Below, piece by piece: positions 6,941-62,441 of a DNA stretch of 64,000 bases. This DNA comes from an uncultured Candidatus Saccharibacteria bacterium (lineage in GTDB: Bacteria; Patescibacteriota; WWE3; 2-01-FULL-39-13). The translations under genes were made by a program, and so were the position numbers. The DNA is taken from NCBI GenBank assembly GCA_965230915.1, contig OZ246395.1, positions 536,935-600,934 on the forward strand, written 5' to 3'. The notes under the pieces are model-generated. The model was not told where the DNA came from, did not search any database, and saw only the letters and a program-made list of their open reading frames with translations. Every line of letters begins with the position of its first letter. Position 1 is the first letter of the stretch.

Positions 6941-7117
6941 ATGAAAAGTAACGACCGCATAAACCAGGTTACCCCTGTTTCACGTGTTTTAGCTGCAGTC
7001 ATATTCGTTATCCTCCCTTTCATAGGCTTCTGGATTGGTTTTACATACCAAAACGAATTAAATGATATGTACAAAGCTTGCACAGAAATGAGAATGGAAA
7101 CCACACAAGGTAATTAA
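6941..7117 (+). CDS. possible small membrane protein (58 aa)
   Basis: ATG..TAA frame in an otherwise ~570-bp non-coding gap, with one hydrophobic helix (VLAAVIFVILPFIGFWIGF). Below the 60-aa track cutoff and competes with a 63-aa antisense ORF. Speculative. Confidence 0.25.
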   Translation: MKSNDRINQVTPVSRVLAAVIFVILPFIGFWIGFTYQNELNDMYKACTEMRMETTQGN

Positions 7118-7175
7118 TTCCGACTATTGATAATTTTTATTAGCCAAAGCTAATATCTTTTAGTATAGTTGCTTA

Positions 7176-8246
7176 ATGAGATTTGGGATCCTAATTTCCA
7201 GCCTTATACTTGTACTAGTATTCATCTGCCTCTATTTATGGTGGAACTATAGAAATTCGTCGTCAAGTCTACCGTCTTCACAGGAAATTTCTGAGAATAT
7301 TCATGAATCATTAAATATTAATGAAAGTATGGCCGAACCAGCCGCACTTGATATCGAATATATGCGTAGTCAGAACTACCCAGGAAGCGATTTAGTCGTT
7401 GAAGAAACGCTATCTCCCGGTTCAAATTACACGAGGCAAGTTGTTTCTTACCAATCTGACGGATTAAAAATTTACGCTCTTTTGACCATTCCAAACGGCG
7501 AAAAACCGGAAACAGGTTGGCCGGTAATCGTTTTCAACCATGGGTATATTCCTCCAGCCCAATATAGAACAACAGAAAGATATATTGCTTACACAGATGC
7601 ATTCTCACGCAATGGTTATATTCTAATAAGACCTGATTACCGAGGACACGGAAGTTCTGAGGGTTCTCCTGAAGGCGCTTATTATTCTCCGGCATACACA
7701 CGTGATGTTTTAAATGCCTTAGCATCGGTTAAAAAGCATCCTGATGCCGATGTTAATAGAATTGGTATGTGGGGGCATTCAATGGGAGGAAGTATTACTT
7801 TGAGATCTATGGTTATTTCAAAAGACATTAAGGCTGGAGTAATTTGGGCTGGAGTTGTAGCCTCGTATGAAGACATGGCTAATAATTGGAATCGAACCCG
7901 ACCATTTACTCCTTCTCCTCTAGAACAACAAACAAGAAGACCCACGCGACAAGAGTTAATAGATAAATATGGAGACTTTTCTGCAAACCCTGAATTTTGG
8001 CAATCAATTTCGCCAATTTATCATGTTAAGGAAGTATCTGGTCCAATACAAATTCATCACGGAACCGCAGATGCAGAAGTTCCAGTGCTATTTAGCGAAA
8101 GGCTAGATGAAGCTATGAAAGCTGCAGGCAAAACCGATGAGCTATATGTATATGAAGGAGACGATCATAATTTATCGCGCAATTTGAGCACAGCACTAAA
8201 GAGATCTGTCGAATTTTTTGATAAATACGTAAAAAACTCCCAATAA
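7176..8246 (+). CDS. alpha/beta-hydrolase, S9 peptidase/dienelactone-hydrolase-like, membrane-anchored
   Basis: N-terminal TM helix, nucleophile elbow GHSMGG (GxSxG), and downstream D and H (HHGTADAEV) consistent with a Ser-Asp-His triad. Confidence 0.75.
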   Translation: MRFGILISSLILVLVFICLYLWWNYRNSSSSLPSSQEISENIHESLNINESMAEPAALDIEYMRSQNYPGSDLVVEETLSPGSNYTRQVVSYQSDGLKIYALLTIPNGEKPETGWPVIVFNHGYIPPAQYRTTERYIAYTDAFSRNGYILIRPDYRGHGSSEGSPEGAYYSPAYTRDVLNALASVKKHPDADVNRIGMWGHSMGGSITLRSMVISKDIKAGVIWAGVVASYEDMANNWNRTRPFTPSPLEQQTRRPTRQELIDKYGDFSANPEFWQSISPIYHVKEVSGPIQIHHGTADAEVPVLFSERLDEAMKAAGKTDELYVYEGDDHNLSRNLSTALKRSVEFFDKYVKNSQ

Positions 8247-8324
8247 TTTGACAGATTAATACAAAACCTATAATTTTACACCAGAGACCGTTTGTGAAGT
8301 TCATTCAATAATAAAGAGGATCAT

Positions 8325-8648
8325 ATGGAATGCTGCTGTTTATCAGTTGCACTCGTGGTATTAGCCCTATTTCCTAAGTTTCAAGGGCTACTAAGATGTC
8401 TGTTCCCCAGAATAAATGGTTGCGGAACCTGTCTTATACTCATGGCGTTTGTTCTGATAGGAATGGTAACCTTCACTTGGATTACAGGCGCTGGCTCTTA
8501 TGCAACGAGCGGAATTGCCAATCTGAGAAATTTCACAATTGGAGATTTCTCAGCTCCGGATGTTGCCCCTGGACTGTTTTTAGTGGGGATCTTTAAGTGG
8601 CTGGTTGATTTTTTGATGCAATTTATCAACGGGACACCGATGTCGTGA
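8325..8648 (+). CDS. hypothetical small hydrophobic protein
   Basis: Track ORF in a locally GC-richer patch, Cys-rich N-terminus and TM segments. Followed by a GAGCCGC palindromic element. Confidence 0.3.
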   Translation: MECCCLSVALVVLALFPKFQGLLRCLFPRINGCGTCLILMAFVLIGMVTFTWITGAGSYATSGIANLRNFTIGDFSAPDVAPGLFLVGIFKWLVDFLMQFINGTPMS

Positions 8649-19984: not shown

Positions 19985-21508
19985 TTATTTCTTTCTATAA
20001 ATTCTAACCAAAGGCGTATCATCCACTTTTACGGAATGGATCTCATTATAATTTTCCAGAATTTTTAGCTCAGGACTATTATAGTAGTGGTGATATTCTG
20101 ATATTAAAATTAAATCTGGTGGGTTTAGCGGATCATATTTATCATAAAACTTTAATCGCTCATCGTATAACGGTGCGGTATGCTGTGGGTACAACAATTG
20201 TATAACCGACAAATTTTTATCAGCAAAAGTTGAATTAACATAATCCACTGCTTCGTGTATTCCTTCACCCCACCAGGCATAATCGAATAAATGGCTCTTA
20301 TAAACATTACGCGTTCCTCCATAAAAAATATTATAGTAGTCAAGATAATATGGAGTGAAAACACTTAAACTCCACATTACGGAACAGATCGCAATCACCG
20401 CAATAATTGGCCGTATTTTTTGATTTAGGCTATGTATAAATGTAGCAAACCCATATCCGGCAATTATCGCCAGCGCCGGAAAATATGAAAATACATAGCG
20501 AATTCCATCTTGTTTTAATCCTACAAAGGAAATTAAAAATGGAGTTAGAAACCATGCAAAAGTTAAGACTAAATATTGCTTGTGGTTTTGTGGAACTTTT
20601 CCTAGGACAAAATATAAAATAGTGATCAAAAAGGATAATAATACTAGTGGCTGGGTTGTCGCTGTAAAATATGTAAAATAATAGTACCAACCAGGTTGGC
20701 CAAGTGATCCTAAGAAGTATTCTCCCGAGTGTGCATTTCTAAAATATCCGAAACTTTTTAGTAAATTAAGCGGGTTTGGCCAAATCCAAGGCCACAGCAT
20801 GTAGATTAGAAATGCGACAAAAAATATTCCACTAACATTTATTAATAATAAATTGCGGCTGAAAGTTTTCTTTTTGAATAAGTAATAGCCATAAGTAAAT
20901 ATATAGAAGAATACAAAAAAGAGCCCGCTGAATTTTGTCAAAAAAAGTAGCGCAAAAAAAAGAAATGATAAGTATATTTTTTTGAAGTCAGGTTTCGAAG
21001 ATCTAAATAATCCTTCAATATAAAAATAAACTAATAATAAAGAAAATAAGGCTTGTGGCGTTTCTAGTCCAGCAACTGCATTATGGCCAATAAAGTGCGG
21101 CATTAGTGCCAAAAATAATGCTGAAAAAAAGGCTTTACGCTCGTCGAACCACTTCGTCGTAATGTAATATACAAAGAAAATTGTTAGTACCCCTATAAAC
21201 GCGCTTACAAGCTTTGCCAAGAAATAGCCTTTATCTTTATGAAAACCTTTATCTACTAAATCATGAATCGCAGGGACTCTATGTTCTATAAAACCAGGAA
21301 TTCCAAAAATATATTTGGCCATAGGTGGATGCTCATAGTTTACGATCCAAATATTATGGCTAAAATCTAAATTCTTAATACCACCAATGTAGATTTCCCC
21401 ACTGCGAACAACCGAAACTTCATCATACATTTCATCATTGCGAACAATTACTAAAAATCTTAAAACAAAGGCGATTAATAGGATCGATATAATAAGTGGT
21501 TTATTCAT
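19985..21508 (-). CDS. GT-C fold glycosyltransferase (family 39 PMT/ArnT-like)
   Basis: 507 aa, about 11 TM helices, and an extracytoplasmic loop after the first TM (VRNDEMYDEVSVVRSG...) as in ArnT/PMT-type glycosyltransferases. Confidence 0.5.
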   Translation of the reverse strand: MNKPLIISILLIAFVLRFLVIVRNDEMYDEVSVVRSGEIYIGGIKNLDFSHNIWIVNYEHPPMAKYIFGIPGFIEHRVPAIHDLVDKGFHKDKGYFLAKLVSAFIGVLTIFFVYYITTKWFDERKAFFSALFLALMPHFIGHNAVAGLETPQALFSLLLVYFYIEGLFRSSKPDFKKIYLSFLFFALLFLTKFSGLFFVFFYIFTYGYYLFKKKTFSRNLLLINVSGIFFVAFLIYMLWPWIWPNPLNLLKSFGYFRNAHSGEYFLGSLGQPGWYYYFTYFTATTQPLVLLSFLITILYFVLGKVPQNHKQYLVLTFAWFLTPFLISFVGLKQDGIRYVFSYFPALAIIAGYGFATFIHSLNQKIRPIIAVIAICSVMWSLSVFTPYYLDYYNIFYGGTRNVYKSHLFDYAWWGEGIHEAVDYVNSTFADKNLSVIQLLYPQHTAPLYDERLKFYDKYDPLNPPDLILISEYHHYYNSPELKILENYNEIHSVKVDDTPLVRIYRKK

Positions 21509-22965
21509 TAGTCTATGCGATATAAATTTCTACCATTTACTGTAAAAATCTTCGTTGCTTTTGTAGAGCCTTTGATTCTATATAACTCTTTCATAAGTGT
21601 CTCATCAACTGGTTGACTCGTATCTAAATAGTAAACCAATTTTGAGTCAGAAGATTTAGCCCACTTTATCCACGAAAAATATCTATCTTTTAATTCTGAT
21701 TCAGGCTCGTAATACCATAACATATATAAAAATGGCTGCGAATCCTCACCCAATATATCAAAGTCCGCACCAGCGGAATCACGCCTTATATTTTCATATA
21801 TTAATTTTTGTGTATAAAACTTATCCTCTTCTGAAGTGTAATTAAAATAATTATATAAATTCTGTGTAACTATTATTAAAAACAGAATTAGAATTGGAAA
21901 ATATGTTTCTTTCCTTTTTATTTTCGCTAAAAGGGCTGCTATAAAAATAACCATCCATGGAATCAAAACAGATTGAAACCAGGCTTCGTGTAGCCCAACG
22001 TCGGTAAATTTCATTACAAATCCAAAAACTATTGAATATAATGCAATTATAAATGCCAGAATATTTATAAAATCCCTTTTTTGATAAGTCTGAATGGCAA
22101 AATAAAAAACTGCCAAAATCAGAAGGATACTCAAGAAAACATAAAATGGCGCACTTGAATAAAACAGCGTCGTAGAAGTATTTAGGCTATAGATTTTGAA
22201 AAAATTATTCATATAATCTATAAAACTTATAGCCTCTGTTTTAGGAGTGTTTAGATATTCTTGAATTTTTATAATATCCCAACCATTAAACTTCTTTTCC
22301 TGATATGCATATGGCAAAGCTGCCGCTACAAAGAGAATTAATCCTGAGTACGCTAATTCTTTAACTGAAAATTTAGGTCTTAAAATTGCGGCTAAAACAA
22401 CTAGAACTGGAATTACGAAAAACCCACTTGGATGAAAACTTACTAACATTGCTAGCGAGAATGAAATTAAAATACTTCCAATCCAATTTGCTTTTTTTAT
22501 TTTTAGAAAAACACCATAAATAAAAATTAGTGCGAACATTGGCATAAAACAGGGATTCAATCCGAACGCTCCTTCTTTTATTACTAAAAATGAAACTGAA
22601 TAAATTATTGTTGCAAAAATTGAGGTAGTCCTTCCAAAAATTTCTTTTGACGTCCAAAAAATTAAAATTAGAGCAATAATATTTAATACCGAAGAAGTAA
22701 TAGCTGGTGCTAATGGGTGGAATCCCATTACAAAATAGAATGGCGCAATAAGATAATAATAGATCGGACTTAGGTGCGCCCATACTAATGAAAAAACTGG
22801 TCCACGATATTGCCATTCATGATACTTAAACATCTTGTAAGTTAAAATCACATCGCGGGAATTGTCATGGCCAAAAGTCCCAAATTGTTCAATATTATAA
22901 AAACGCAAAAAAACACCCAGTAGAATTAAAACAATCGTAGTTGCATAATAATAATTTATCTTCAT
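21508..22965 (-). CDS. polytopic membrane protein, GT-C-like glycosyltransferase (second copy)
   Basis: 485 aa. Topology resembles the neighbouring GT-C protein, with a 1-nt stop/start overlap. Confidence 0.45.
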   Translation of the reverse strand: MKINYYYATTIVLILLGVFLRFYNIEQFGTFGHDNSRDVILTYKMFKYHEWQYRGPVFSLVWAHLSPIYYYLIAPFYFVMGFHPLAPAITSSVLNIIALILIFWTSKEIFGRTTSIFATIIYSVSFLVIKEGAFGLNPCFMPMFALIFIYGVFLKIKKANWIGSILISFSLAMLVSFHPSGFFVIPVLVVLAAILRPKFSVKELAYSGLILFVAAALPYAYQEKKFNGWDIIKIQEYLNTPKTEAISFIDYMNNFFKIYSLNTSTTLFYSSAPFYVFLSILLILAVFYFAIQTYQKRDFINILAFIIALYSIVFGFVMKFTDVGLHEAWFQSVLIPWMVIFIAALLAKIKRKETYFPILILFLIIVTQNLYNYFNYTSEEDKFYTQKLIYENIRRDSAGADFDILGEDSQPFLYMLWYYEPESELKDRYFSWIKWAKSSDSKLVYYLDTSQPVDETLMKELYRIKGSTKATKIFTVNGRNLYRID

Positions 22966-25656: not shown

Positions 25657-26115
25657 TTATCTTTCTTTAATTTTTGAAGCAGCTTTTCCTGTTCTTTCTC
25701 TTAGGTAGTAAAGTTTTGCGCGTCTAACTTTTCCTGAAGCTCTAACAGCTACAGATTCAATATTTGGAGATGACATTGGGAAAATTCTTTCTACGCCAAT
25801 ATTCGCAGCACCCATTCTTCTAACGGTGAATGTCTTTGAAACGCCGGAACCTTTGATACCTATAACAATACCTTCGTATGGCTGAACTCTAGATTTTGAA
25901 CCTTCAATAATCTTATAGTTAACAACGACCTTATCACCTACTCTAAATTTTAGTTTTGGAGTATCAATAGCTTCAGTTTCAGCTGTTTCTACTGCTTCTG
26001 CAGTATTTGCTTCATTTGTATCAGCAACTTCAACAGTTTCGGCTGTTTCAGCTACTTCTGGAGTCTGATCTGTGACTTTGGTTGAATTGTCTTGTGTATC
26101 AGGTTGGTCGGCCAT
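25657..26115 (-). CDS. rplS: 50S ribosomal protein L19 with ~55-aa acidic N-terminal extension
   Basis: C-terminal 100 aa align with the L19 core ([29 protein letters not shown]...TFTVRRM...GVERIFP..SP.I.....[22 protein letters not shown]). The extension is [32 protein letters not shown]. Confidence 0.9.
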
Positions 26116-26325
26116 TACGCAGGAAATTTTAACCTATTTCTATAATTTCCGCAATATATAAGCCTATTTAGGGAAAAACGGATAGCCAGCAGGTCGGAAT
26201 TAATTATAGTGCACTAAAGTGCTAAAGATCGCCATTGATCTTACTATAAGAAATCCCTTCCTGCTGGCTGAACTGATGACTTACCTCTCGCGGGGGGTCC
26301 TATTTAAGGCAGTAAATAGGCCTCG

Positions 26326-29265
26326 TTATTCTATGCCGTGCAGATATGGAAAGAATGTGAACGACTTCTCGGGTTCATTTGGCTCGCAATTCAGGTCAGC
26401 GAGACGAGGATATTGATGAACCCAATATTTATCGCCCTCCAAAACTACCGTATCGCCAGCGCTATCCGCAATAACAAGAACAACCCCACCAGGAACCGCC
26501 GACCCAACGATGGTATAGTCGATACCCTCGACAGTTGGCGTCAATACAATGGCGAATGGATCTTCGCAAGTCGGATCAGCAAACAGCGGTGGTGCAGTCT
26601 CTACAACTGTGGGCTGAACGCCACAAACCGTGTGGTCGCCCAAATCGATAACCTGAGGCGAGTAGTCACTCGGCAAAGTATAAGTCGGAGCGTTAGCTAC
26701 GGCCAATACAACGGCGATGTTTGCTGTCGGATTTTCCGGGTACACCGAATAACTGATCTGATCAGTATCGTCGGGGACCTCAACCAAACCGACTTCGTTA
26801 CATGCCCCTGGCTCGATTACATCGAACAATGCCAATTTGGGCACCACAACAGTAGGCTTGAAAGTGCAATCAGGCGCCGCCGGGTAAGTATGACTCCATT
26901 GCGTATCACCTGTAAGAGTGAAAGCATTCGGATCAACCGATTCGCGCAACTCTGCACTAACAGTGACCGACTTGCTAGGTTCAACTTCACCGACATACGA
27001 ATAGCGAATGAAATCGCTATTATCGAAATTGATAGAGGCATCAACCTCGCAAGTCGGATCAACAAACTCAGGCGCAACCGTTTCGACTTCAATCGGTGGC
27101 ACAGAACAATCCGGGGCAACACTGAAATCATGAATCCACGTTGACGATCCAACAATCTCAAAGAAAGTCGGGTCGACAGAATTGCGCAATTCAGCGGTCA
27201 CAGTGACGCGCTCGCCTGCAGCAACCGAACCATCTGTGTCGTACTTGATAAAATCGTCTTCCGGAGTGATTACATCGGCGACAACAGAACAAGTTTCTTC
27301 AACAAACGTCGGTGCAGTTGCTGTTAACTGAGTCGGTTCGACAGTGCAATCGGGCGCTTCATCGAATGTGTGAGACCAAAGCTTAGGTTCCATAAGCGTA
27401 TAGCTTTCAGAATCCACCGATTGTCGCAATTGTGCTCCAACTTCGACGAACTGGCCTGCTGAAACCGTACCGGTAACTACATAAGACACAAAATCAGTGT
27501 CAGATGTAACAACCTGGGCCGGCGTTTCGCATGTCTGTTCTTCGAAAACTGGCGCTTCTGCCATCAGTTCGATCGGATCTACGCATTCAACAAAATCACC
27601 CAAATACACGGCAAACTGCCAATCTGGGTTGGTTGAAACAAAACCATCTTCGACTTCGTGTGTTACAACAACAAACCCTTCGATCGGATCGACAGGATCC
27701 ACCAAATAGGTAATGTGTTCTGTCGTGGCCGGAGTTACCGAGCCTTCAACACCACACACACCTTCAGGAATTATCGTAACTTGCGGATTCTCTGGCATCA
27801 CACTCACAGGACAATTGAGAGATTCAACCGTCACAAAAGTGTGGGACCAACTGATCTCTCCAACAGCCATCTTATTCTTGATGCTGGCTTTGAGACTCGC
27901 ATTCACTTCAACGGTACTACCTGGCGTTGTTTCTCCCATAACTTCGTAAACGAAGTCGTTGTCGGGGAAAGAAACCGACGCACTCTGCATGGAACATGTC
28001 GGTTCATTGAATGTCGGGTCGTCAGGTTCGACCGAGTCGGGTGCGAATGTGTATTTTACACACCCAATGGTCAAGTCCTGTATGATTCCGCCACCAAAAA
28101 CGCCACTTCCCAAAGCAAAGCCGACGGCCAAAGCATGAGCATCTGGATATGCATCCAAGATCTTATACATCTCGCCTTGGACTGGGTAACCCTGAGATGG
28201 GTAACCAATATTCGGCAACCCCGGGAAAGTAGTAGTGTTAATGGAATTACTCCACCAAACATCACCATAATAGCCGGGTTCATACGCCATATAGCCATCG
28301 AAAGTGCCATTGTTGTCGAGATCAACCTTAAGCTGAAGTCCTGCAGGGGGAGTAACCGAATAACCGCTGATAGCAGCATAAGTAAGTGACAAAGTTCCGG
28401 TAGTCCCGATTTCCTTCAAATGGAAGTTAATCGGGTAATAACCCTTTACCTTGTCCTGACCTGTAGTGCCATTTGTATGGATCAACAAACCTTGCGGCGA
28501 TGCCCCATTTTGCGCGACAAACTCGTAATAGCCCGACGTGCCGGTCTCTGTGTCGAGATCCCAACCCTGTCGGTTGCTAAAAGTTATCGGCTCAGCGTTA
28601 GTCACCTCGTCGCAGGCCAGAGGCTCAGAGACGAAATAGGTTGTCTTGCAGTCGAATGTGATCGACTTAAGCACTGAAGTGCCAGGCTGATATGATCCGT
28701 AAGAAACTCCATATGCCACAACCATGAGATTAGGATTGGCAGTAAGAATTTCATCAAGATCAACCTGATGCCGTGTCTCGTAAGGCTCGGCAGTTTGATT
28801 TGCGGCATTCGGAACGCCCAGATCTGTGCCTGTTCGCCACCAATAGCCGTCAAACACGCCCTTATTGTCGGGATCATTGTAAACCTGCTCCCAAACAAGA
28901 GTTGCACCAGGATCACCATCAGACCACCCAGTTACCGCAAGTTGATATGTCGCGGTACCGGTACGATCAAAATCGAGCGAGTCAATTTCAGAAAGAGGTA
29001 CATTGACCTCTTTCATCAAAAACACTTTCGACAGATTCTGCGGGTTCACCATCTCCAAGCCGTTAGGCGTGAACATGTACGAACCTTCAAATGTTCCGTT
29101 GTAATTGTTACTTACAACCCAGCCATCCAAAGCATAGGGTGTAACAATTACCTCAGAGTCTTCGCAGATTGCATCTCCCGGAAAGACCGCCTGCGCACTC
29201 CCATAGGACAAAACATTCATGAAAAGCGCGCATACCAAAATCCCCAATACCATCCTAAAACGCAT
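26326..29265 (-). CDS. large secreted Cys-containing tandem-repeat protein (adhesin-like), GC-rich
   Basis: Start placed at MRFRMVLGILVCALFMNVLSYGSAQA (signal peptide, AAAGGA RBS 8 nt upstream). The track ORF extends to 29328. At least four ~85-aa repeats share the pattern ...(T/Q)C(E/S)...DF..Y...G.......V.V.A.L..S.D......(W)SHT(F/Y)..APDC(T/S). Markedly GC-rich relative to the flanks. Confidence 0.75.
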   Translation of the reverse strand: MRFRMVLGILVCALFMNVLSYGSAQAVFPGDAICEDSEVIVTPYALDGWVVSNNYNGTFEGSYMFTPNGLEMVNPQNLSKVFLMKEVNVPLSEIDSLDFDRTGTATYQLAVTGWSDGDPGATLVWEQVYNDPDNKGVFDGYWWRTGTDLGVPNAANQTAEPYETRHQVDLDEILTANPNLMVVAYGVSYGSYQPGTSVLKSITFDCKTTYFVSEPLACDEVTNAEPITFSNRQGWDLDTETGTSGYYEFVAQNGASPQGLLIHTNGTTGQDKVKGYYPINFHLKEIGTTGTLSLTYAAISGYSVTPPAGLQLKVDLDNNGTFDGYMAYEPGYYGDVWWSNSINTTTFPGLPNIGYPSQGYPVQGEMYKILDAYPDAHALAVGFALGSGVFGGGIIQDLTIGCVKYTFAPDSVEPDDPTFNEPTCSMQSASVSFPDNDFVYEVMGETTPGSTVEVNASLKASIKNKMAVGEISWSHTFVTVESLNCPVSVMPENPQVTIIPEGVCGVEGSVTPATTEHITYLVDPVDPIEGFVVVTHEVEDGFVSTNPDWQFAVYLGDFVECVDPIELMAEAPVFEEQTCETPAQVVTSDTDFVSYVVTGTVSAGQFVEVGAQLRQSVDSESYTLMEPKLWSHTFDEAPDCTVEPTQLTATAPTFVEETCSVVADVITPEDDFIKYDTDGSVAAGERVTVTAELRNSVDPTFFEIVGSSTWIHDFSVAPDCSVPPIEVETVAPEFVDPTCEVDASINFDNSDFIRYSYVGEVEPSKSVTVSAELRESVDPNAFTLTGDTQWSHTYPAAPDCTFKPTVVVPKLALFDVIEPGACNEVGLVEVPDDTDQISYSVYPENPTANIAVVLAVANAPTYTLPSDYSPQVIDLGDHTVCGVQPTVVETAPPLFADPTCEDPFAIVLTPTVEGIDYTIVGSAVPGGVVLVIADSAGDTVVLEGDKYWVHQYPRLADLNCEPNEPEKSFTFFPYLHGIE

Positions 29266-29421
29266 AGCAAGATCCTTTCTGATCTTCAGTGAAAACGTAG
29301 TTTCGGCAACATCCGTCACTATCCCCATTCAGGAATTGATATCCGTCTTGTGTGAATACCAACTAGTAAGTCTTCGTCGACTTGCTAATAGTCTGCCTTA
29401 AAATCTCGCGTTTTTGCGAAA

Positions 29422-29471
29422 TTTAGACGGATATAAAAATGGCAGATAAGCCACTTATAAATCCGTCTAAA
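29422..29471. promoter_or_regulatory. 17-bp inverted repeat (TTTAGACGGATATATAA / TTATAAATCCGTCTAAA), part of a cluster of four ATCCGTC/GACGGAT boxes upstream of the giant GC-rich gene
   Basis: Arms at 29422-29438 and 29455-29471, matching 16 of 17. Two further ATCCGTC copies lie at 29311-29317 and 29341-29347. Confidence 0.4.
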
Positions 29472-29617
29472 AAAAGGCAAACTATAAAATAGCGTCGCAA
29501 TGCTCCTCGCATGTGCTTCGCAAAAGTAATCATCAGTTTTTAAAAGTGCTAAAACACCTGAAAATTTTAGCATCGATGGCAAGCTTGTCCAACCTATAAC
29601 CTTTGTCTACAGAAATT

Positions 29618-29650
29618 AAAAAAGGGAGCCGCTAAGCTCCCTTTTATTTT
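29618..29650 (-). terminator. intrinsic terminator (bidirectional-looking) downstream of the Clp ATPase gene
   Basis: GGGAGC-cgctaa-GCTCCC hairpin (29624-29641). Plus strand has aaaaaa before and ttttatttt after, so the minus strand reads hairpin then a U-run. Confidence 0.65.
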
Positions 29651-29665
29651 GATTCAACCAAGCCC

Positions 29666-31774
29666 TTAAGCCACAACCGATACCTTGCTGCTCTCTTTTA
29701 CTTCAATAACCAAACCATTCTTATCTGCGTCAATACTTATTGTGTCACCCTTCTTGGCACCATTATCAATTATTAATCCTGATACCTGGTTTTCAATCTC
29801 TTTTTGAATTAACCGCTTTATAGGTCTTGCACCCATTTCAACGTTATATCCACTTTCGGCCAAGTATTTCTTAGCTTTCTCGCTGAATTTAACGTTTATA
29901 CCCGTCTCAGTTAATAAGTTTGTGAGTTGTGATAATTCAATATCAACTATTTCTTCTATGTCTTTAATTCTTAATGGCCTGAAGATGACTATATCGTCAA
30001 TACGATTCAAGAATTCTGGTCTAAACTGAGCTTTTAATGAATCCTCTAATCTTGTTTTTATAGATTTATAAGCTTCATCGGCTACTTCATCTTCTTTCAT
30101 TTCAACTTCGGTAAAGCCTATTCTTTCCTTTTTTAGGTATTCTGACCCTACATTAGAAGTCATAATAATAATCGTATTCTTAAAATCTACGGTCATACCG
30201 TGACCATCTGTCATACGTCCGTCATCCATAACCTGCAAAAGAATATTAAAGACATCGGTATGAGCTTTTTCGATTTCATCGAATAATACGATACTGAATG
30301 GTTTTCTTTTTACTTTGTCGGTTAATTGACCGCCTTCTTCGAAACCAACGTAGCCTGGTGGCGAGCCGATTAGGCGAGCCACATTATGACGCTCGTTAAA
30401 TTCACTCATATCGACTCTTATTAAGTAATCTTCTGATCCATATAGTGTTTCTGCTAATGCTTTTGCTAGCTGGGTTTTTCCAACTCCAGTTGGTCCTAAG
30501 AACATAAATACGCCAATCGGTCTATTTAAATGGCGAACACCTGCTCTTGCACGACGAATAGCTTGAGCTACAATTTCGACCGGTTCATCTTGTCCAACAA
30601 CCTTTTTCTTTAATTCTTTTTCTAGATTTTGTAGTCTTAGTCTTTCATCTTGGGTTAATTCACTTAGTGGAATTCCAGTCGCAATCGAGACAACCGCTGC
30701 TACGTGTTTTTCATCCAAAACTGGAGTTTTTTCGAGTTTTGTTTGAACCCAAAGCTCTGTTAATTCTTTTTTGACTTGTGAAAGTCTTTCGATTTCTGCT
30801 TCTATTTTCTTTTGTTTTTCGATATCTTCTTCAGCCATTATTTCTCGATCGAGCTGCTCGAGTTGTGCTGTAACCTCTTTAAGGTTTTCTGGTTCTTGTG
30901 AAGCCAATTCTAGTCTTAAAGCTGCTCCAGCCTCGTCGATTAAATCTATAGCCTTATCAGGCAAAAATTTGTCTGAAATATATCTGGAAGAAAGCCTTAC
31001 TGCTGACTCAATAGCGTCGTTAGTGATTTTGATCTGGTGATGATCTTCGTAACTCTTTCTTAAGCCCTGTAAAATTCGCTTTGTGTGTTCGAATGATGGT
31101 TCATCGACCATTATCTGCTGAAATCTACGCTCTAAAGCAGCGTCTTTTTCAATAATTCTATATTCTTTTATAGTTGTTGCTCCGATTAGCTGAAGTTCAC
31201 CGCGAGCCAAATATGGTTTTAGAATATTGGCTGCATCCATTGAACCCTGAGCACTTCCTGCACCAATTAAGGTATGAAGCTCATCAATAAACAAGATTAC
31301 CTGACCTTTTGTCTTTATAACTTCTTCGATTATCTCTTTTAATCGTTTTTCAAAAGATCCTCGGTGAGCTGTTCCGGCAATCATGGCGGCTAAATCTAGC
31401 GCAACCAAGCGTTTATTTCGTAATGGCTCGGGAACACTTCCGTCATATAACTTTTGAGCCAAACCTTCAACTATTGCTGTTTTACCAACACCAGGTTCTC
31501 CGATTAAAACCGGATTATTCTTTTTTCTTCTTGAAAGTATATGAATCACACGATCAATCTCTTTTTCGCGACCAATAACAGGGTCTAATTTACCCTCACG
31601 AGCATAGTCGGTTAAGTCTTTGCTAAATTGATTAAGTGATTCTGTGACTTGAGATTCTTTTCTTAAATCTTCAAAACATTGTTCGCAAAGGGACATGTAA
31701 ACTAAGCGTCCATTTATATTCATTGCGGTTTGATGCTTTGCTTCTCGTTTTCTACAATTGCTACAAACTACCAT
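29666..31774 (-). CDS. Clp/Hsp100 AAA+ ATPase with N-terminal zinc-ribbon (ClpE/ClpC-like), two nucleotide-binding domains
   Basis: N-terminal CSNC....CEQC. Walker A motifs GEPGVGKT and GPTGVGKT. Short middle coiled coil (ClpC/E-like, not the long ClpB M-domain). Confidence 0.85.
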   Translation of the reverse strand: MVVCSNCRKREAKHQTAMNINGRLVYMSLCEQCFEDLRKESQVTESLNQFSKDLTDYAREGKLDPVIGREKEIDRVIHILSRRKKNNPVLIGEPGVGKTAIVEGLAQKLYDGSVPEPLRNKRLVALDLAAMIAGTAHRGSFEKRLKEIIEEVIKTKGQVILFIDELHTLIGAGSAQGSMDAANILKPYLARGELQLIGATTIKEYRIIEKDAALERRFQQIMVDEPSFEHTKRILQGLRKSYEDHHQIKITNDAIESAVRLSSRYISDKFLPDKAIDLIDEAGAALRLELASQEPENLKEVTAQLEQLDREIMAEEDIEKQKKIEAEIERLSQVKKELTELWVQTKLEKTPVLDEKHVAAVVSIATGIPLSELTQDERLRLQNLEKELKKKVVGQDEPVEIVAQAIRRARAGVRHLNRPIGVFMFLGPTGVGKTQLAKALAETLYGSEDYLIRVDMSEFNERHNVARLIGSPPGYVGFEEGGQLTDKVKRKPFSIVLFDEIEKAHTDVFNILLQVMDDGRMTDGHGMTVDFKNTIIIMTSNVGSEYLKKERIGFTEVEMKEDEVADEAYKSIKTRLEDSLKAQFRPEFLNRIDDIVIFRPLRIKDIEEIVDIELSQLTNLLTETGINVKFSEKAKKYLAESGYNVEMGARPIKRLIQKEIENQVSGLIIDNGAKKGDTISIDADKNGLVIEVKESSKVSVVA

Positions 31775-42743: not shown

Positions 42744-43112
42744 CTATGCGGCAGCTCTTAGGGGTTCTTGCTCAAGAACTCTACATGCCATTGGAGAATG
42801 GTCGTCCTCAGGGTCGCCATTTTCCTCAAAGAGAGTCCCGCCATTTTCATTGGCGAAATTTTGAATTGCCTCAAGGGCATTGTGCCTTGCAGCATGTGTT
42901 AACCCCTCTCGCTCGAAGATTGCTACAGCCTGCAACATAGCTGGATTTGTACCTGGCGAATCATTCTCATTTTTCCTCGTCAGCAAAAAAATAAGGGCGG
43001 CACGCACAAGTTGCTTTGCAGGATCCCTTGGCTGCGTTTGCTGCATGATTTCACCTAGCGTTATTTCAGGGGTATCCTTTTTTGGAGCTTTACTCTTCTT
43101 GGAACTGCCCAT
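42744..43112 (-). CDS. hypothetical protein (122 aa), locally GC-rich
   Basis: AGGAG 9 nt upstream of the ATG. Composition is atypical for the window (Ala/Pro/Glu-rich, GC-rich codons). Confidence 0.45.
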   Translation of the reverse strand: MGSSKKSKAPKKDTPEITLGEIMQQTQPRDPAKQLVRAALIFLLTRKNENDSPGTNPAMLQAVAIFEREGLTHAARHNALEAIQNFANENGGTLFEENGDPEDDHSPMACRVLEQEPLRAAA

Positions 43113-57495: not shown

Positions 57496-60030
57496 ATGTT
57501 TGCTAAAGCATTAAAGATTTGCTTTGTAGCTGTTGTAATTTCAATACTATCCTTCACACAAATTATCTTTGCGCAAGAGCCCAAAGTACAAGTTTTTTTG
57601 CCTGTAATATCAGGTGGAATTGCGCAAGAGTCAGAAGAAGATTTATTCGATGCTGAATATGAACAAATAAAGGTTCTACTTGAAAAAGAGCTTCGTAACA
57701 CTATTCCAAATATCCAATATAACAACCATAGTTACAATTGGATTAGACAAGACGATGACTGGATTTACGGGTATGTACTTGCAAGTATTAATCAATCTGC
57801 TCAACCAGACGGATATATTTTCTTAGTAAACAAACTGGAAAATAATATTTCAGTTGCATATATGTATACTCAGAAATTTGATGAATGGGTCGATCTTCTG
57901 CCGGATAATATTATACCGGCTGAGCGTCAAAAATATTTCTATTCATCAGCAAAATCCGCACACATTGCAGGTGATCTAGCTAGCGACTCATCTAGTGACC
58001 CCCAACTTTCGTTTCCATGGAGAGAGGGTTATTCTTGGAGATTCAATGGCGGCCCACACAATAATGCTGGCTCCGGAGTTACTAAGGAACCTTGGTCGGG
58101 TTTAGACTTTGGAATTCCTTACCAATCTGCAACTTCTGATCCAACCGACACTACGGTTGTAACATCCAGAGATGGATATGTATTAATTATTGAACCAAAT
58201 TGCGCCGTAACAATAGGATATGAAGATGGGTGGTCATTAAGATACCTTCACGTTAGTGAAATTACAGTATTCGAAGGACAATTTATTGAAAGAGGGACAA
58301 AGATAGCAAAAGTTGATACCGACAACCCATGTTATTTAGGCCCAGAGGATGGACCACATTTACACCTCGGCCTAAAATACAATGGAGATTTTACAGATTT
58401 TGATGGTAAATATATCGGCGGATGGTTGGTTAATAAGAGCACTTCTATATATCAAGGAACCTTAACCCTTGGTTCTATTGCCACCCTACCGGCATCGAGC
58501 ACAAAAGTTGGAAGAGGCTCTAGTTATGTAGAAAATAGGGGTTTCATTGGGAGCCAATGGTTTATTGGACCTGTCGTTTATAAAAAGCCAACTGTCGGAG
58601 TAGGCGTCTGTATAGAACCGAATTCATGCTACCAACTAAATACTGGTTCTGTATTACAAACTTCTTCAACCAACCAAATCAGCTATATAATGCCAGCTAA
58701 AGGCTATATGGTTGAATTCCGCAAGGATATGACACTAAATATTTCAACAGCTAATACTGATGCAACAAACGTGAATTTTAGCTGTCTTGATTTTGATGTA
58801 ACCGATTTTCAAAATTATAACTTTCCTAACACTAACCTTAAACTAAAGGACTACTCTACCGACATACAAATCCAACAAGGAACATGTAACCCAAATGACC
58901 GGCCAACAAAAACAGGATCAACAACATCACCTACAAATCCGACACCGACAGAACCATCGACAAATTATGGATGTAACAACCAAACAACAGGAGTCAAATT
59001 CCTAAATAACTCAGGTAGCTGCTTCTATATGACCGCCGGCAAAGCTAGCCTTCCATTTAGCCCAACCAAAATTGAAGTACTAGATACGGTTCGGAAATAC
59101 GATATATCGATATGCAATGCAAAGGGAGAATGCGACGAATTCAACAATAGCGCAAGCATCGACCACTCATCTGTATCACGCCCTTTTACAAGAGTTGAAG
59201 TAACTCCTCAAGGATTAGTAAGCAGTGATGCGGTGGGTTCATGCAAAACGAGTACAGGGCGTAAAGTCCAGTTTTCAACAATGCAAAATGGCGTAAAGTA
59301 TTACACCGATCGAAGCTATACAGTTAAGAATGTGGATAAACTTGAATTGATTGGCATGAAGTTTCTGATGACGCCAAATGATGATAAATATAATGGTGAT
59401 CCAGAATACATTACGTGCGACATCAAAAAGACCACACAAATTGTAATAGCAATAGATGGCCGTGTTAGAACTTTATCGAGCTGGATGAGAAGCATGCCAT
59501 ACGAGCGAATGAATCGTGAAATCGGAGTCACTGACAACGATATGCAACACTTCGACCTGTATGCATGTACACAAAAAGCTGGCTACAAATTAAGACTTGG
59601 GGGACCTCAATCCGATGGATCAAGCAACATAAAAAGCAACTACATCATTATATTCCGAGATGCAGCCCAAGAAAAAGCTACTGACTGTTCGGCAAAGTTT
59701 AATGTTCCCCCAGACCAACCAGTGCTCAAAAGTGTTGAAGTCACAACGACTTTAACATCTGCGCCACTTCTCGAATGGAGCATGTCGGATAGAAACTTCA
59801 CAGACGACTATCTCGAAGCTTATGTAAAAGTATGGAAGGATGACCAGCTTATAAGTACACCTGATTGGCTACCAATTGGTGTAACACAATGGATTCCTTT
59901 GTGGAATGACCCGGGTTCATATAGAGCCCAGGTAGTTGTGCGCGACAGCAAAGGAATCGAAGTACTTTCGAATGAGATACAATACCAACTTTCAGCACCA
60001 ATTGAAGCTTGTGTTGTTTATACAAACTAG
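57496..60030 (+). CDS. secreted M23 (LytM-type) peptidase with large C-terminal Cys-containing region
   Basis: Signal peptide. M23 motifs HxxxD-like (HNNAGSGVTKEPWSGLDF) and GPHLHLG. Thr/Pro linker TKTGSTTSPTNPTPTEPST, then about 350 aa with spaced Cys. Confidence 0.7.
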   Translation: MFAKALKICFVAVVISILSFTQIIFAQEPKVQVFLPVISGGIAQESEEDLFDAEYEQIKVLLEKELRNTIPNIQYNNHSYNWIRQDDDWIYGYVLASINQSAQPDGYIFLVNKLENNISVAYMYTQKFDEWVDLLPDNIIPAERQKYFYSSAKSAHIAGDLASDSSSDPQLSFPWREGYSWRFNGGPHNNAGSGVTKEPWSGLDFGIPYQSATSDPTDTTVVTSRDGYVLIIEPNCAVTIGYEDGWSLRYLHVSEITVFEGQFIERGTKIAKVDTDNPCYLGPEDGPHLHLGLKYNGDFTDFDGKYIGGWLVNKSTSIYQGTLTLGSIATLPASSTKVGRGSSYVENRGFIGSQWFIGPVVYKKPTVGVGVCIEPNSCYQLNTGSVLQTSSTNQISYIMPAKGYMVEFRKDMTLNISTANTDATNVNFSCLDFDVTDFQNYNFPNTNLKLKDYSTDIQIQQGTCNPNDRPTKTGSTTSPTNPTPTEPSTNYGCNNQTTGVKFLNNSGSCFYMTAGKASLPFSPTKIEVLDTVRKYDISICNAKGECDEFNNSASIDHSSVSRPFTRVEVTPQGLVSSDAVGSCKTSTGRKVQFSTMQNGVKYYTDRSYTVKNVDKLELIGMKFLMTPNDDKYNGDPEYITCDIKKTTQIVIAIDGRVRTLSSWMRSMPYERMNREIGVTDNDMQHFDLYACTQKAGYKLRLGGPQSDGSSNIKSNYIIIFRDAAQEKATDCSAKFNVPPDQPVLKSVEVTTTLTSAPLLEWSMSDRNFTDDYLEAYVKVWKDDQLISTPDWLPIGVTQWIPLWNDPGSYRAQVVVRDSKGIEVLSNEIQYQLSAPIEACVVYTN

Positions 60031-60792: not shown

Positions 60793-61143
60793 TCAGTAAT
60801 ACCGATTTGGGTAATCCCTCGGCGGTTGCGTCACATAAAGCAGATTCTCGGCCAAGTTCTGTTCAAATCGCCCATTGAGCAGAATGAAAACCTCTCCGAG
60901 TGGTCTCTCGAGCGTAACGATGTTATGCTCGTCAGGTGTTACATGCAGCCAAAGTATTCCGCCGCTAGTAAACCATTCAGCACCGGGTGTGTGACCCGAC
61001 GTCGAATATTGAGTCTCGAGATACCCCCACATAAAAGGGTTTTTCTTATATTCTTCTCGAAACTTGATTAACGCAGCCTCGACCTTTTTGGCCCATTCGT
61101 TCCGCAGCTCTGTGGCCTTTGCCTTCGATTCTTTGGTAATCAT
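60793..61143 (-). CDS. hypothetical protein (116 aa), islet gene 2
   Basis: 4-nt overlap with the upstream paralog-A gene. GC-rich codon usage. No recognised motif. Confidence 0.5.
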   Translation of the reverse strand: MITKESKAKATELRNEWAKKVEAALIKFREEYKKNPFMWGYLETQYSTSGHTPGAEWFTSGGILWLHVTPDEHNIVTLERPLGEVFILLNGRFEQNLAENLLYVTQPPRDYPNRYY

Positions 61144-61577
61144 TCCCCCTCCATATTGAAGTTTTTTACCACAGCATCCAGAATCGGACGATGGGCGGAC
61201 TGCAGGTCAGACGCAATCTTGATATGCGCGGAATCGCTCTTTTCCTGCAAACCAAACAACACCAAAATTTCATTAATGGCAGGCCCAGTTGCGGGATATT
61301 TGCCATATTGATCACCGCGAACGATGATCTTATATTCTCCGTCCTTATCGGCCTCGTAGCAGAACATTACTAAACCTGCGCCGTTCAACCGATACCCACC
61401 GGGGTCAATAACGATGCTGATAGCGATCTCGTGGATGCTCTTCTTCAACAATTCCTTCACCAACTTATCACACGGTGGAATGGTACCTTTCTCCGCTTCC
61501 GGATGCATCATGGTGGTGAAAATAAGAATCGCCTTCAAAGCCTCAACAAGTTTACCCAACCTCTTTAGAGTCAACAT
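61140..61577 (-). CDS. hypothetical protein, paralog A (145 aa) of a two-member family
   Basis: Shares blocks with the 125-aa protein: PxC..L...., YRLNGAGL vs FRLNGSGL, YPATGPAINEIL vs YPKTGPALNAVL. Confidence 0.55.
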   Translation of the reverse strand: MLTLKRLGKLVEALKAILIFTTMMHPEAEKGTIPPCDKLVKELLKKSIHEIAISIVIDPGGYRLNGAGLVMFCYEADKDGEYKIIVRGDQYGKYPATGPAINEILVLFGLQEKSDSAHIKIASDLQSAHRPILDAVVKNFNMEGE

Positions 61578-61630
61578 CTTCGGTTCCTTTTCTATTGGGA
61601 TGGCTTTATTCGCACACGAAAACTGGGTGC

Positions 61631-61659
61631 ATTATATATTTATTAACGAAAGTAGTCAA
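61631..61659 (-). promoter_or_regulatory. near-consensus sigma70 promoter for paralog A (TTGACT-17-TATAAT)
   Basis: Minus strand reads TTGACTACTTTCGTTAATAAATATATAAT. The -35 is at 61659-61654 and the -10 at 61636-61631. Confidence 0.6.
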
Positions 61660-61877
61660 TACTATGGGACTAGTGGCGGACCTTAAAGAACTTAATTGGA
61701 ATCGGATTTTTGAGTTTATATTGAAATTTGTGTAGTTTTCGACTTGATCTTCCCAAGTCTCATCAGTCACTAAGTGAGAACTACTCCAACGTTATCTCTT
61801 TATTTTTTAAAAATTCCGATATTCCGGAAAAAGAGAAGCCACGTTGGCGGCAAGCTTTTCAGCTTTTGAGAAACTAT

Positions 61878-62255
61878 CTACGCCGAATTTTTCACCAGCA
61901 ATTCTTTGAGCCGAGATTCTGGCTTGGGTTGCAAGTGATACTGCTGAAGAACAGCGTTCAACGCTGGACCGGTTTTCGGATAATGGCTGTACTGATCGTA
62001 ATCAAGTACACGAAGCGTTTCTTCGCTCTCGTTATATCCCAGGCGGAGACCCGATCCGTTCAATCGGAAGTCGCGTTGCTGCAAAATTTGCAATGCTGTT
62101 GCTTCAAGGCCAATGCGGGTCGCAGTGTTGATCAAAGCCGAACATGCTGGACCGAAAGTGATCTCTTCCTGGGAACAACGTTGCCCAAGAGCAATCATTT
62201 CTGGTAATGCATTGACCAAATTCTGAAGTGTTACTTCATTCACTGGACGGGACAT
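61878..62255 (-). CDS. hypothetical protein, paralog B (125 aa)
   Basis: See paralog A. GC-rich. Confidence 0.55.
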   Translation of the reverse strand: MSRPVNEVTLQNLVNALPEMIALGQRCSQEEITFGPACSALINTATRIGLEATALQILQQRDFRLNGSGLRLGYNESEETLRVLDYDQYSHYPKTGPALNAVLQQYHLQPKPESRLKELLVKNSA

Positions 62256-62364: not shown

Positions 62365-62441
62365 TGGTGGACCGAATGGGACTTGAACCCATGACCCCTT
62401 CCATGCCATGGAAGTGCTCTGGCCAACTGAGCTACCGGCCC
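62365..62441 (-). tRNA. tRNA-Ala (GGC), CCA encoded
   Basis: RC reads GGGCCGGTAGCTCAGTTGGCCAGAGCACTTCCATGGCATGGAAGGGGTCATGGGTTCAAGTCCCATTCGGTCCACCA. G3:U70 Ala identity pair, anticodon loop ATGGCAT. Confidence 0.9.

Follow-up and report, generated by a model that had tools for sequence, protein, structure and literature searches.

A putatively acquired gene for a modular, probable binding protein in the clpC–rplS spacer of a small-genome Patescibacteria bacterium

How did a gene for a large, apparently secreted protein come to lie between clpC and rplS in a small-genome bacterium of the Patescibacteria (Candidate Phyla Radiation, CPR), and what might the protein do? The gene is on the reverse strand of a 64,000-nt stretch of contig OZ246395.1 (hereafter the window), where an open reading frame (ORF) of 1000 aa at 26326–29328 is the sole long ORF of its region. 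The explanation considered probable is that the gene was acquired horizontally and encodes a Sec-exported, modular binding protein of the cell surface or the extracellular space. The location and composition of the gene bear on the first part of this explanation, and the architecture and homologies of the protein bear on the second.

The insertion and its composition

In each of six relatives, with ClpC proteins 92, 89, 88, 87, 84 and 70% identical to that of the window, the gene order is dnaE–clpC–rplS–yraN, the gap between clpC and rplS is 33–77 bp, and nothing lies in it. When one of these relatives, locus L009, is aligned to the window with blastn, the two are collinear through dnaE–clpC to position 29675. 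The alignment resumes at 26139 with the 33-nt rplS leader, which is 97% identical, and L009 has only ~62 bp in between. The inserted block consists of the gene plus 336 bp upstream and 186 bp downstream. Scans of the 7.6–22-kb loci of three relatives (L009–L011) found no ORF with either of the domain types described below, the D domain and the Cys-bracketed repeat. Thus, as judged from six relatives and the blastn break points, the gene interrupts a conserved gene order and is absent at this place from close relatives. Insertion in the window lineage is by far the simpler assumption, as the alternative requires the same stretch to have been precisely deleted six times. A preliminary description of this DNA had proposed that the gene was plausibly acquired horizontally, and had named homologues with the same GC shift, syntenic in all relatives, as the finding that would speak for a native gene. 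There is no such homologue at the locus, clpC and rplS being adjacent in all six, and the proposal is supported both by this synteny and by the deviation in GC content and codon usage.

The host is placed by the neighboring genes. The ClpC-type ATPase of the window (29666–31774) is 64–92% identical to those of relatives, and its best named matches, at 56–58%, are from candidate division WWE3 and the “Patescibacteria group.” Taken with the 945-kb length of the source contig, these matches point to a small-genome CPR lineage. Saccharibacteria were considered as the origin of the window and rejected on the ClpC matches; only one window gene is 53% identical to a Saccharibacteria locus. Within the insertion, a promoter-like site and a 22-nt inverted repeat lie beyond the clpC terminator hairpin, upstream of the gene, and a 27-nt inverted repeat just after the stop codon is possibly a hairpin at the end of the transcript (Table 1). 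Rfam identifies five tRNAs in the window and none in the inserted region, and a plasmid search found no match.

The composition of the gene is unlike that of its surroundings. Its GC content is 48.4%, compared with 36.0% elsewhere in the window. Of all 1-kb bins, those at 26–29 kb, three in number, are the most GC-rich (47.5%–48.8%), the next-highest reaching 43.6%. Within the gene, GC content spans 44 to 53% in 200-nt windows. The preliminary description had correctly recognized the most GC-rich stretch of the window, but its figures of ~50%–55% against ~33% overstated the difference. All three codon positions are raised: GC content is 55.9, 42.6 and 46.8% at the first, second and third positions (GC1, GC2 and GC3), compared with means of 45.3, 34.4 and 28.8% for the 49 other ORFs, among which the standard deviation of GC3 is 6.5%. 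Synonymous codon choice was compared between the gene and 32 other window genes with a scaled chi-square, which is 0.42 for the gene; among the others, the median is 0.125 and the highest value 0.32. GGC (34% vs 19%), GCC (23% vs 16%) and CGC (33% vs 16%, from only 12 Arg codons) are commoner than elsewhere, as had been noted, and so is CCG (40% vs 16% of Pro codons). Conversely, TTA (2% vs 46% of Leu codons), AGA (0% vs 37% of Arg codons) and GGA (16% vs 42% of Gly codons) are rarer. Hence, the deviation from the host genome that is looked for in transferred genes is seen in GC content, in GC3 and in the codon chi-square. High-expression codon bias was considered as a source of the GC3 shift and rejected: GC3 is lowest (18%) in the adjacent gene, for ribosomal protein L19, and where GC3 is high elsewhere in the window, the ORFs are small hypotheticals, not ribosomal genes.

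Heads, stalk and tail of the protein

Two ATG codons could start the gene. Met22, whose ATG at 29265 is the upper coordinate used in the preliminary description, is likely the start, because a Shine–Dalgarno-like AAAGGA run lies 7–14 nt upstream of it and inspection of the sequence upstream of the ATG at 29328 finds no such run. Translated from Met22, the protein begins with MRFRMVLGILVCALFMNVLSYGSAQA, followed by VF. This peptide has a basic n-region, a hydrophobic core and an AXA cleavage site (AQA), and by eye would be a typical Sec signal, in agreement with the signal peptide reported earlier. It is followed by two ~185-aa Cys-bracketed domains (D1 and D2), seven ~80-aa Cys-bracketed repeats (R1 to R7) and a short C-terminal tail. 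The protein has 19 Cys in total. Cys33 lies within the signal peptide, and the other 18 bracket the nine consecutive domains, every one of which starts and ends with a Cys. These 18 Cys probably pair as one N-to-C disulfide staple per domain, since pairing across neighboring domains would leave Cys55 and Cys981 unpaired; such an arrangement would suit an extracellular, oxidizing location.

D1 and D2, which are absent from the preliminary description, are homologues (29% identity, E 1e-7). D2 is 36%–40% identical to D domains of proteins of actinobacterial-like composition, of a locus in a Chloroflexia metagenome-assembled genome (MAG; L005) and of small-genome contigs. The domain recurs one to four times in secreted proteins of actinobacterial-like composition (P0002, P0003), and is also found in named actinobacteria (Marmoricola, Humibacter), in a MAG of the Chloroflexia and in numerous contigs of Saccharibacteria/Patescibacteria type. 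It lies outside every Pfam and NCBIfam model, both in the window protein and in the relatives that were scanned. Its core reads LQL-x-(V/I)-D-x-D-x-(N/D)-G-x-x-D-G, (L/M)-V-Y-E-P, W-W, G-(Y/F)-S-L-G-S-G-V ... I-T-x-G-C-x-x-Y-T-F. The DxDxNG stretch, which we take to resemble a calcium-binding loop, is intact in D2 and degenerate in D1.

What might a D domain look like? The AlphaFold2 (AF2) model of D2 (predicted local distance difference test [pLDDT] 88.4, predicted template modeling score [pTM] 0.84) is mostly beta and forms a beta-sandwich. Its Foldseek neighbors, although all weak (E 0.008–0.1, template modeling [TM] scores of 0.30–0.48), are of a similar kind, and include the carbohydrate-binding modules (CBMs) CBM11, CBM28, CBM27 and CBM6, as well as GH12, PP2 lectin and the MAM domain. 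As modeled, the D domains weakly resemble lectins and CBMs in shape, and would represent a widespread but uncatalogued beta-sandwich family. CBM11 (1v0a/6r3m), CBM28 (1uww), CBM27 and PP2 phloem lectin are likewise ~180-aa beta-sandwiches at the distal end of modular extracellular proteins, and a probable calcium-type loop is a further point of likeness. In contrast, the identity of D2 to these proteins is only 10%–14%, D2 has no CBM or Pfam/NCBIfam sequence match, and ligand-binding residues are not identifiable in it. A D domain also occurs in a phage. Specifically, gp44 of Microbacterium phage Nicole72 (L034, OR159674.1; 3887–5254), annotated as “membrane protein,” has one that is 36.9% identical to D2 (E 1e-8), and it sits between the lysis cassette and recombination genes.

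The proposed stalk consists of seven repeats: R1 (aa 436–514, with the Cys pair 445/506), R2 (515–589, 525/582), R3 (590–669, 600/661), R4 (670–749, 680/741), R5 (750–829, 760/821), R6 (830–910, 843/902) and R7 (911–985, 921/981). The preliminary description had seen the Cys brackets correctly, and its estimate of at least four units of ~85 aa is here revised to seven of ~80 aa. R1, R3, R4, R5 and R7 are of one type (A), with mutual BLASTP E values of 1e-8 to 1e-25 and the pattern P-x-F-x-(E/D)-x-T-C ... W-x-H-x-(F/Y) ... C. R2 and R6 are of a second type (B), and score 15.9 and 19.9 bits against leave-one-out profiles, compared with 6.7 bits for the best of 200 shuffles. Automated repeat detection, which the preliminary description had proposed as a check, thus reproduces the pattern at the protein level by BLASTP, leave-one-out profiles and profile search. 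Tandem Repeats Finder detects no DNA-level repeats in the gene because the copies are old (16%–45% aa identity).

To which family do the repeats belong? Ten repeats, of which the window protein contributed seven and homologue P0004 three, were combined into a profile, and an exhaustive search with it covered 1.84 billion representative proteins; a word-indexed search with the repeat profile had retrieved nothing, the window protein itself included. The exhaustive search found 674 proteins at E ≤ 1e-3, 251 of them at E ≤ 1e-10, with 2–17 repeats each. Among the 148 best representatives, 108 have a C-terminal anchor of a transmembrane helix plus basic residues, and in 90 of these 108 it is accompanied by L(P/A)xTG, the motif by which wall proteins anchored by sortase in monoderm bacteria are recognized. 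Named members include proteins of Arthrobacter silviterrae (WP_165181575.1, P0016) and Pseudactinotalea sp. (WP_152819120.1, P0020), the latter labeled “InlB B-repeat-containing protein” in UniRef. They score 174 and 64 bits, respectively, against PF18998 (Flg_new_2, “divergent InlB B-repeat”). The window protein has no match in Pfam-A (hmmscan) or NCBIfam, even at E ≤ 1, and hence does not reach the PF18998 gathering score of 23.6 bits. However, a profile of the seven window repeats alone aligns to the Pfam-positive actinobacterial repeats with an hhalign probability of 96.6% (E 5.7e-10, 72 columns), and both Cys columns are in register. All six actinobacterial repeats that were used match PF18998 singly (best E 4.8e-7), below 23.6 bits where a score is given (20.1 bits for member 1). 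Thus, homology to bona fide members is demonstrable by profile–profile comparison, and the earlier statement that the protein has no named domain is true of direct Pfam and NCBIfam searches only.

The AF2 model of R5 (pLDDT 91.3) has five strands, no helix and a long loop. In PMC8900821, the InlB B-repeat is described as a beta-grasp in which an extended loop replaces the helix, and the predicted R5 structure would agree with that description. The Ig-like or transthyretin-like fold that had been named earlier as a possibility to be tested was not borne out. On the evidence of the profile alignments, the repeats belong, as distant members, to the InlB B-repeat/Flg_new_2 superfamily, and carry a Cys bracket in addition. 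They share with PF18998 proteins of Actinobacteria the tandem arrangement of ~75–90-aa all-beta units and the motif P-x-F/V...C...(I/V)xY...G.xVxVxA...W...C. The actinobacterial proteins are secreted surface proteins, as is predicted for the window protein, and the predicted window unit is helix-less and five-stranded. Unlike them, the window protein falls below the Pfam threshold, does not retrieve InlB structures with Foldseek, has no sortase signal or transmembrane anchor, and combines two repeat subtypes with D-domain heads. InlB has a single B-repeat, for which the available text of PMC8900821 describes no Cys bracket, whereas the window protein has seven, all Cys-bracketed.

The protein terminates in ...LNCEPNEPEKSFTFFPYLHGIE, which lacks the sortase-type combination of L(P/A)xTG, hydrophobic helix and basic tail. 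Other anchor-less members end in short aromatic-(L/F/M)-P-x-hydrophobic tails, namely IYFPQLSK, LYFPQVEN, VFLPMIRSPA, VIWLPVVSTVD, LMWLPLVSDIE and AIYLPVIDD, in the non-sortase proteins P0004, P0026, P0022, P0017, P0048 and P0113. Of 163 proteins, 7 have a strict form of this pattern within their final 16 residues, compared with 0.17 expected by chance, several of the proteins being mutually related; the window tail, with TFFPYL, misses the strict pattern and only approximates it. This short tail could be an undescribed retention or sorting signal, which is a lead rather than a result. The list of proteins with a hydrophobic-aromatic-(L/F/M)-P-x-(V/I/L/M) tail and no sortase or transmembrane anchor also has P0032/L003 (9671–11692) and P0049.

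Origin and function

Among 5.8 billion proteins there is no close orthologue of the window protein, the best match having 57% identity over one domain. The best homologues are 32%–57% identical: D1 shares 57% identity with the D domain of P0004, whose source is a CPR-like MAG with 31% GC; D2 is ~40% identical to many proteins; and the whole architecture is matched at 32% identity by P0032/L003. The latter (626–673 aa) has the same order of signal peptide, two D domains, three repeats and tail, and is alignable over ~600 aa. P0004 (777 aa, GCA_964610165.1) ends in a similar tail, IYFPQLSK. The genes of both, like that of the window, are GC-richer than their flanks. Unlike the window protein, both have three repeats and lie in other gene neighborhoods, and P0004 has one D domain only, together with an extra, different N-terminal domain.

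Could GC-richness be an intrinsic property of the family? This was considered and rejected, since shifted and unshifted homologues are mixed. Nine homologues are within ~3.5 GC points of their flanks (L006–L008, L012, L014, L015 and L017–L019). Shifted copies occur in four genomes: that of the window (+12 points), L002 (8200–10542; 43% vs 31%), L004 (9029–11080, equivalent to L013 and L016; 60% vs 47.7%) and L003 (9671–11692; 66% vs 46.5%, with a GC3 of 90%). Such a mixture is consistent with small-genome bacteria of lower GC content having acquired this type of gene repeatedly, and at different times, from donors of higher GC content. Phages are conceivable as the vehicle; nothing links a phage to the clpC–rplS locus. 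Regarding the sources of these loci, L002 and L003 are TPA_asm MAG records titled “uncultured Gammaproteobacteria bacterium,” a label that is probably unreliable and perhaps wrong. L002 has a GC content of 31% and carries DUF5660/DUF5674 genes, which we take to be typical of Patescibacteria, and L003 has 48% GC overall.

Several observations weigh against an acquired gene for a surface binding protein. The borders of the insertion show no integrase, transposase, tRNA, flanking direct repeats or target-site duplication. No donor lineage has been identified, the best D2 identities being only ~40%, and the single phage match is distant and to the D domain. The relatives are represented by contigs, so in principle another part of their genomes might contain the gene. 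With regard to the protein, neither Pfam nor NCBIfam has a model that matches it, and the CBM-like structural matches of D2 are weak. A Foldseek search of the PDB with the R5 model gave no meaningful match, InlB included, and was topped at E > 2 by TSR and midkine folds, which are thin and disulfide-rich; profile searches of PDB sequences with the repeat and D-domain alignments also gave nothing significant. Finally, the protein has no recognizable anchor, so it may be released rather than bound to the surface.

Four other explanations have to be weighed, two for the origin of the gene and two for its function. It is very unlikely that the gene is native, that is, ancestral, kept at a high GC content by amino acid or expression constraints, and deleted from the clpC–rplS spacer in the relatives. 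Codon positions 1 and 2 do account for some of the GC excess, as V, T, P, G, D, E and A are abundant in the protein; P0004, the closest homologue, likewise exceeds its flanks in GC content mostly at these two positions (its GC3 is 32%); and the relatives are incomplete contigs. However, the absence of the gene from all six relatives, with a 33–77-bp spacer kept, would require several independent precise deletions. Moreover, GC3 and synonymous codon choice are deviant too, the low GC3 of the L19 gene next door indicates that high expression does not raise GC3 here, and many family members in other small genomes have no GC shift. The most improbable of the four explanations is an assembly artefact, in which a 3.5-kb foreign piece was mis-joined into a metagenome-derived genome. 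The sharply different GC content and codon usage of the block would be consistent with such a join, as would the fact that the genome is apparently a single 945-kb contig of a public assembly with no close duplicates in databases. Yet the block lies exactly inside an intergenic spacer, with the clpC stop, the terminator hairpin and the rplS leader intact on either side, and the one gene in it is complete, having a start, a signal peptide and a stop of its own, a result that chimeric joins rarely yield.

With respect to function, the preliminary description had offered a surface adhesin or an S-layer-type protein. A structural, S-layer-like envelope protein that forms a lattice or sheath, rather than an adhesin that binds a ligand, would be in keeping with a large secreted protein of beta-rich repeats, and the D-domain relative P0002 has CWB2 repeats, with a weak match there to a clostridial SlpA model. 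This explanation is unlikely, as Pfam and NCBIfam searches identify no SLH, CWB2 or other wall-binding module in the window protein, a core envelope component would hardly be expected to be missing at the locus from close relatives, codon usage departs from that of the neighboring core genes, and a head-plus-stalk layout with sortase-anchored family members is typical of adhesins. The anchors of 108 of the 148 family representatives favor the first half of the earlier suggestion, a surface protein, for which an adhesive role is predicted; the S-layer half is the less likely. Even less probable than a native origin of the gene is the idea that the N-terminal domains are enzymes, either GH12-like glycanases or cutinase/lipase-like serine hydrolases, with the repeats serving only as a tether. 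GH12 endoglucanases are among the top Foldseek matches of D2, but these matches have TM scores of ~0.4 and 12%–14% identity, CBMs and lectins score equally, and no catalytic Glu pair was identified. Similarly, D1 has a G-x-S-x-G motif (GVSYG), and Pfam Cutinase/Lipase_3 matches P0002 locally, at the GYSLGSG stretch that is conserved among relatives. That match is coincidental: D2 has Ala (GFALG) in place of the “nucleophile” Ser, the ~20 residues that follow the motif leave no room for the Asp and His partners of a triad, and the modeled fold is a beta-sandwich rather than an alpha/beta hydrolase, so the likeness to a cutinase is confined to the motif.

How would an acquired gene for an exported binding protein work? 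The gene would have been inserted, with its own promoter region, into the short clpC–rplS spacer. Its product would be exported by Sec and the signal peptide cleaved, and each domain would be oxidized into a unit stapled from N to C terminus. Two lectin/CBM-like heads, one of which (D2) retains the putative calcium-type DxDxNG loop, would then be presented on a stalk of seven helix-less, beta-grasp B-repeat-like beads. Held off the cell on this rigid stalk, the heads would bind a ligand, for which a glycan or a polymer of the cell wall, on a partner cell or a substrate, is the most plausible candidate, and the short hydrophobic, Pro-containing tail would stand in for the sortase signal found in most of the family. 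From the sequence homologies and the models, the role of the protein is most likely binding, as a borrowed adhesin. The insertion, the deviating composition and codon usage, the arrangement of domains and the homologies are observed, whereas export, disulfide pairing, retention at the surface and the nature of the ligand are inferred. Indeed, MSCRAMM-like, sortase-anchored head-and-stalk adhesins are known in Gram-positive bacteria, and the window protein likewise has a signal peptide, putative binding domains at the N terminus and small beta domains repeated in tandem as a stalk. Most of its repeat family ends, as these adhesins do, in L(P/A)xTG, a transmembrane helix and a basic tail, whereas the window protein has no sorting signal. 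In addition, its domains are apparently stabilized by terminal Cys pairs rather than isopeptide bonds, and its heads belong to an unnamed family. In cultivated Patescibacteria, epibiotic growth requires multiple adhesins (PMC10633639), so an acquired adhesin is a reasonable selective explanation.

What are the implications of such a gene? Patescibacteria have tiny genomes, the cultivated ones are attached to other bacteria, and attachment proteins are known for only a minority of the lineages. In the present case, 3.5 kb of a 0.95-Mb genome is spent on what appears to be a recently gained head-and-stalk protein, built of modules that are common in actinobacterial wall-anchored proteins. First, the protein is a candidate strain-specific attachment or host-range determinant. 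Second, the unnamed ~180-aa domain family could enter domain databases. Third, the locus may offer a clean, dated gene gain in a lineage usually discussed for gene loss. Modular adhesins and their horizontal transfer are already well known, so the novelty is at the database level, with no change of paradigm. A broader proposal, which is speculative and more doubtful than not by a good deal, is that the gene is one instance of a recurrently exchanged “host-interface cassette.” Head-and-stalk proteins of high-GC monoderm bacteria (Actinobacteria, Chloroflexi) would have been captured repeatedly by small-genome Patescibacteria, perhaps via phages, for attachment to the envelopes of those same bacteria. 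If this were true, the uncatalogued ~180-aa calcium-loop beta-sandwich would be a new glycan- or wall-binding module, the Cys-stapled B-repeat units would be a new kind of stalk, and the aromatic-(L/F/M)-P-x-hydrophobic tail, replacing LPXTG, would be a new retention or sorting signal in lineages without a sortase-type anchor.

Features of the locus and other genes of the window

Table 1. Positions in the window of the inserted block, the gene, its putative signals and the parts of its protein
Feature	Position	Strand	Basis
Lineage-specific inserted DNA, ~3.5 kb, between clpC and rplS	26140..29674	-	blastn against L009; synteny in six relatives
Coding sequence, probable start Met22 to stop, 979 aa	26326..29265	-	ORF list, AAAGGA run, composition
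Signal peptide (putative), aa 22–47	29188..29265	-	Translation: n-region, core and cleavage motif
D1, aa 48–232, Cys55...Cys227	28633..29187	-	57% identity to the P0004 D domain; homology to D2
D2, aa 233–432, Cys239...Cys423	28033..28632	-	DxDxNGxxD loop (VDLDNNGTFDG); D-domain homology; AF2 model
Seven ~80-aa Cys-bracketed repeats	26374..28023	-	Alignments, pairwise BLAST, leave-one-out profiles, profile search, AF2 model
C-terminal tail, aa 982–1000, EPNEPEKSFTFFPYLHGIE	26329..26385	-	Translation; no LPXTG, no transmembrane helix
Intrinsic-terminator-like hairpin after clpC	29620..29645	-	Pattern scan: 11-bp stem, then T run
Sigma-70-like promoter candidate, TGGACA-16-TAAAAT, extended -10 TG	29564..29591	-	10 of 12 consensus matches; regional count of such sites not above shuffles
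22-nt inverted repeat in the 5' leader/promoter region	29422..29471		86% complementary, 6-nt spacer
27-nt inverted repeat just 3' of the stop codon	26184..26269		81% complementary, 32-nt loop, no T tail

Other genes of the window and of the related loci show features that are separate from the insertion. Three small hypothetical ORFs, at 61140–62255 (-) and 42744–43112 (-), have a GC3 of 42%–57%, compared with a genome mean of 29%. Two of the three adjoin a tRNA gene at 62368–62441 (-), and these may be a second foreign patch in the window. An 844-aa ORF at 57496–60030 (+) has a signal-like N-terminal peptide, many Cys and a slightly raised GC content (39.7%); a domain scan found neither a D domain nor a repeat in it. 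In relative L011, an unrelated 476-aa gene of normal GC content and without a Pfam match lies between dnaE and clpC (7069–8499), so the spacers of this conserved block seem to accept insertions. A pair of PMT_2 glycosyltransferase-like genes is present once in the window (19993–22934) and twice in L009 (3006–5832 and 15607–18545), where the copies flank dnaE–clpC–rplS; this points to a local rearrangement or a difference in copy number. Lastly, ribosomal protein L19 (25657–26115, -) has an acidic N-terminal extension that is encoded by short DNA repeats of 9/15 nt (25976–26059), and is 152 aa long in the window, compared with 108–149 aa in relatives.

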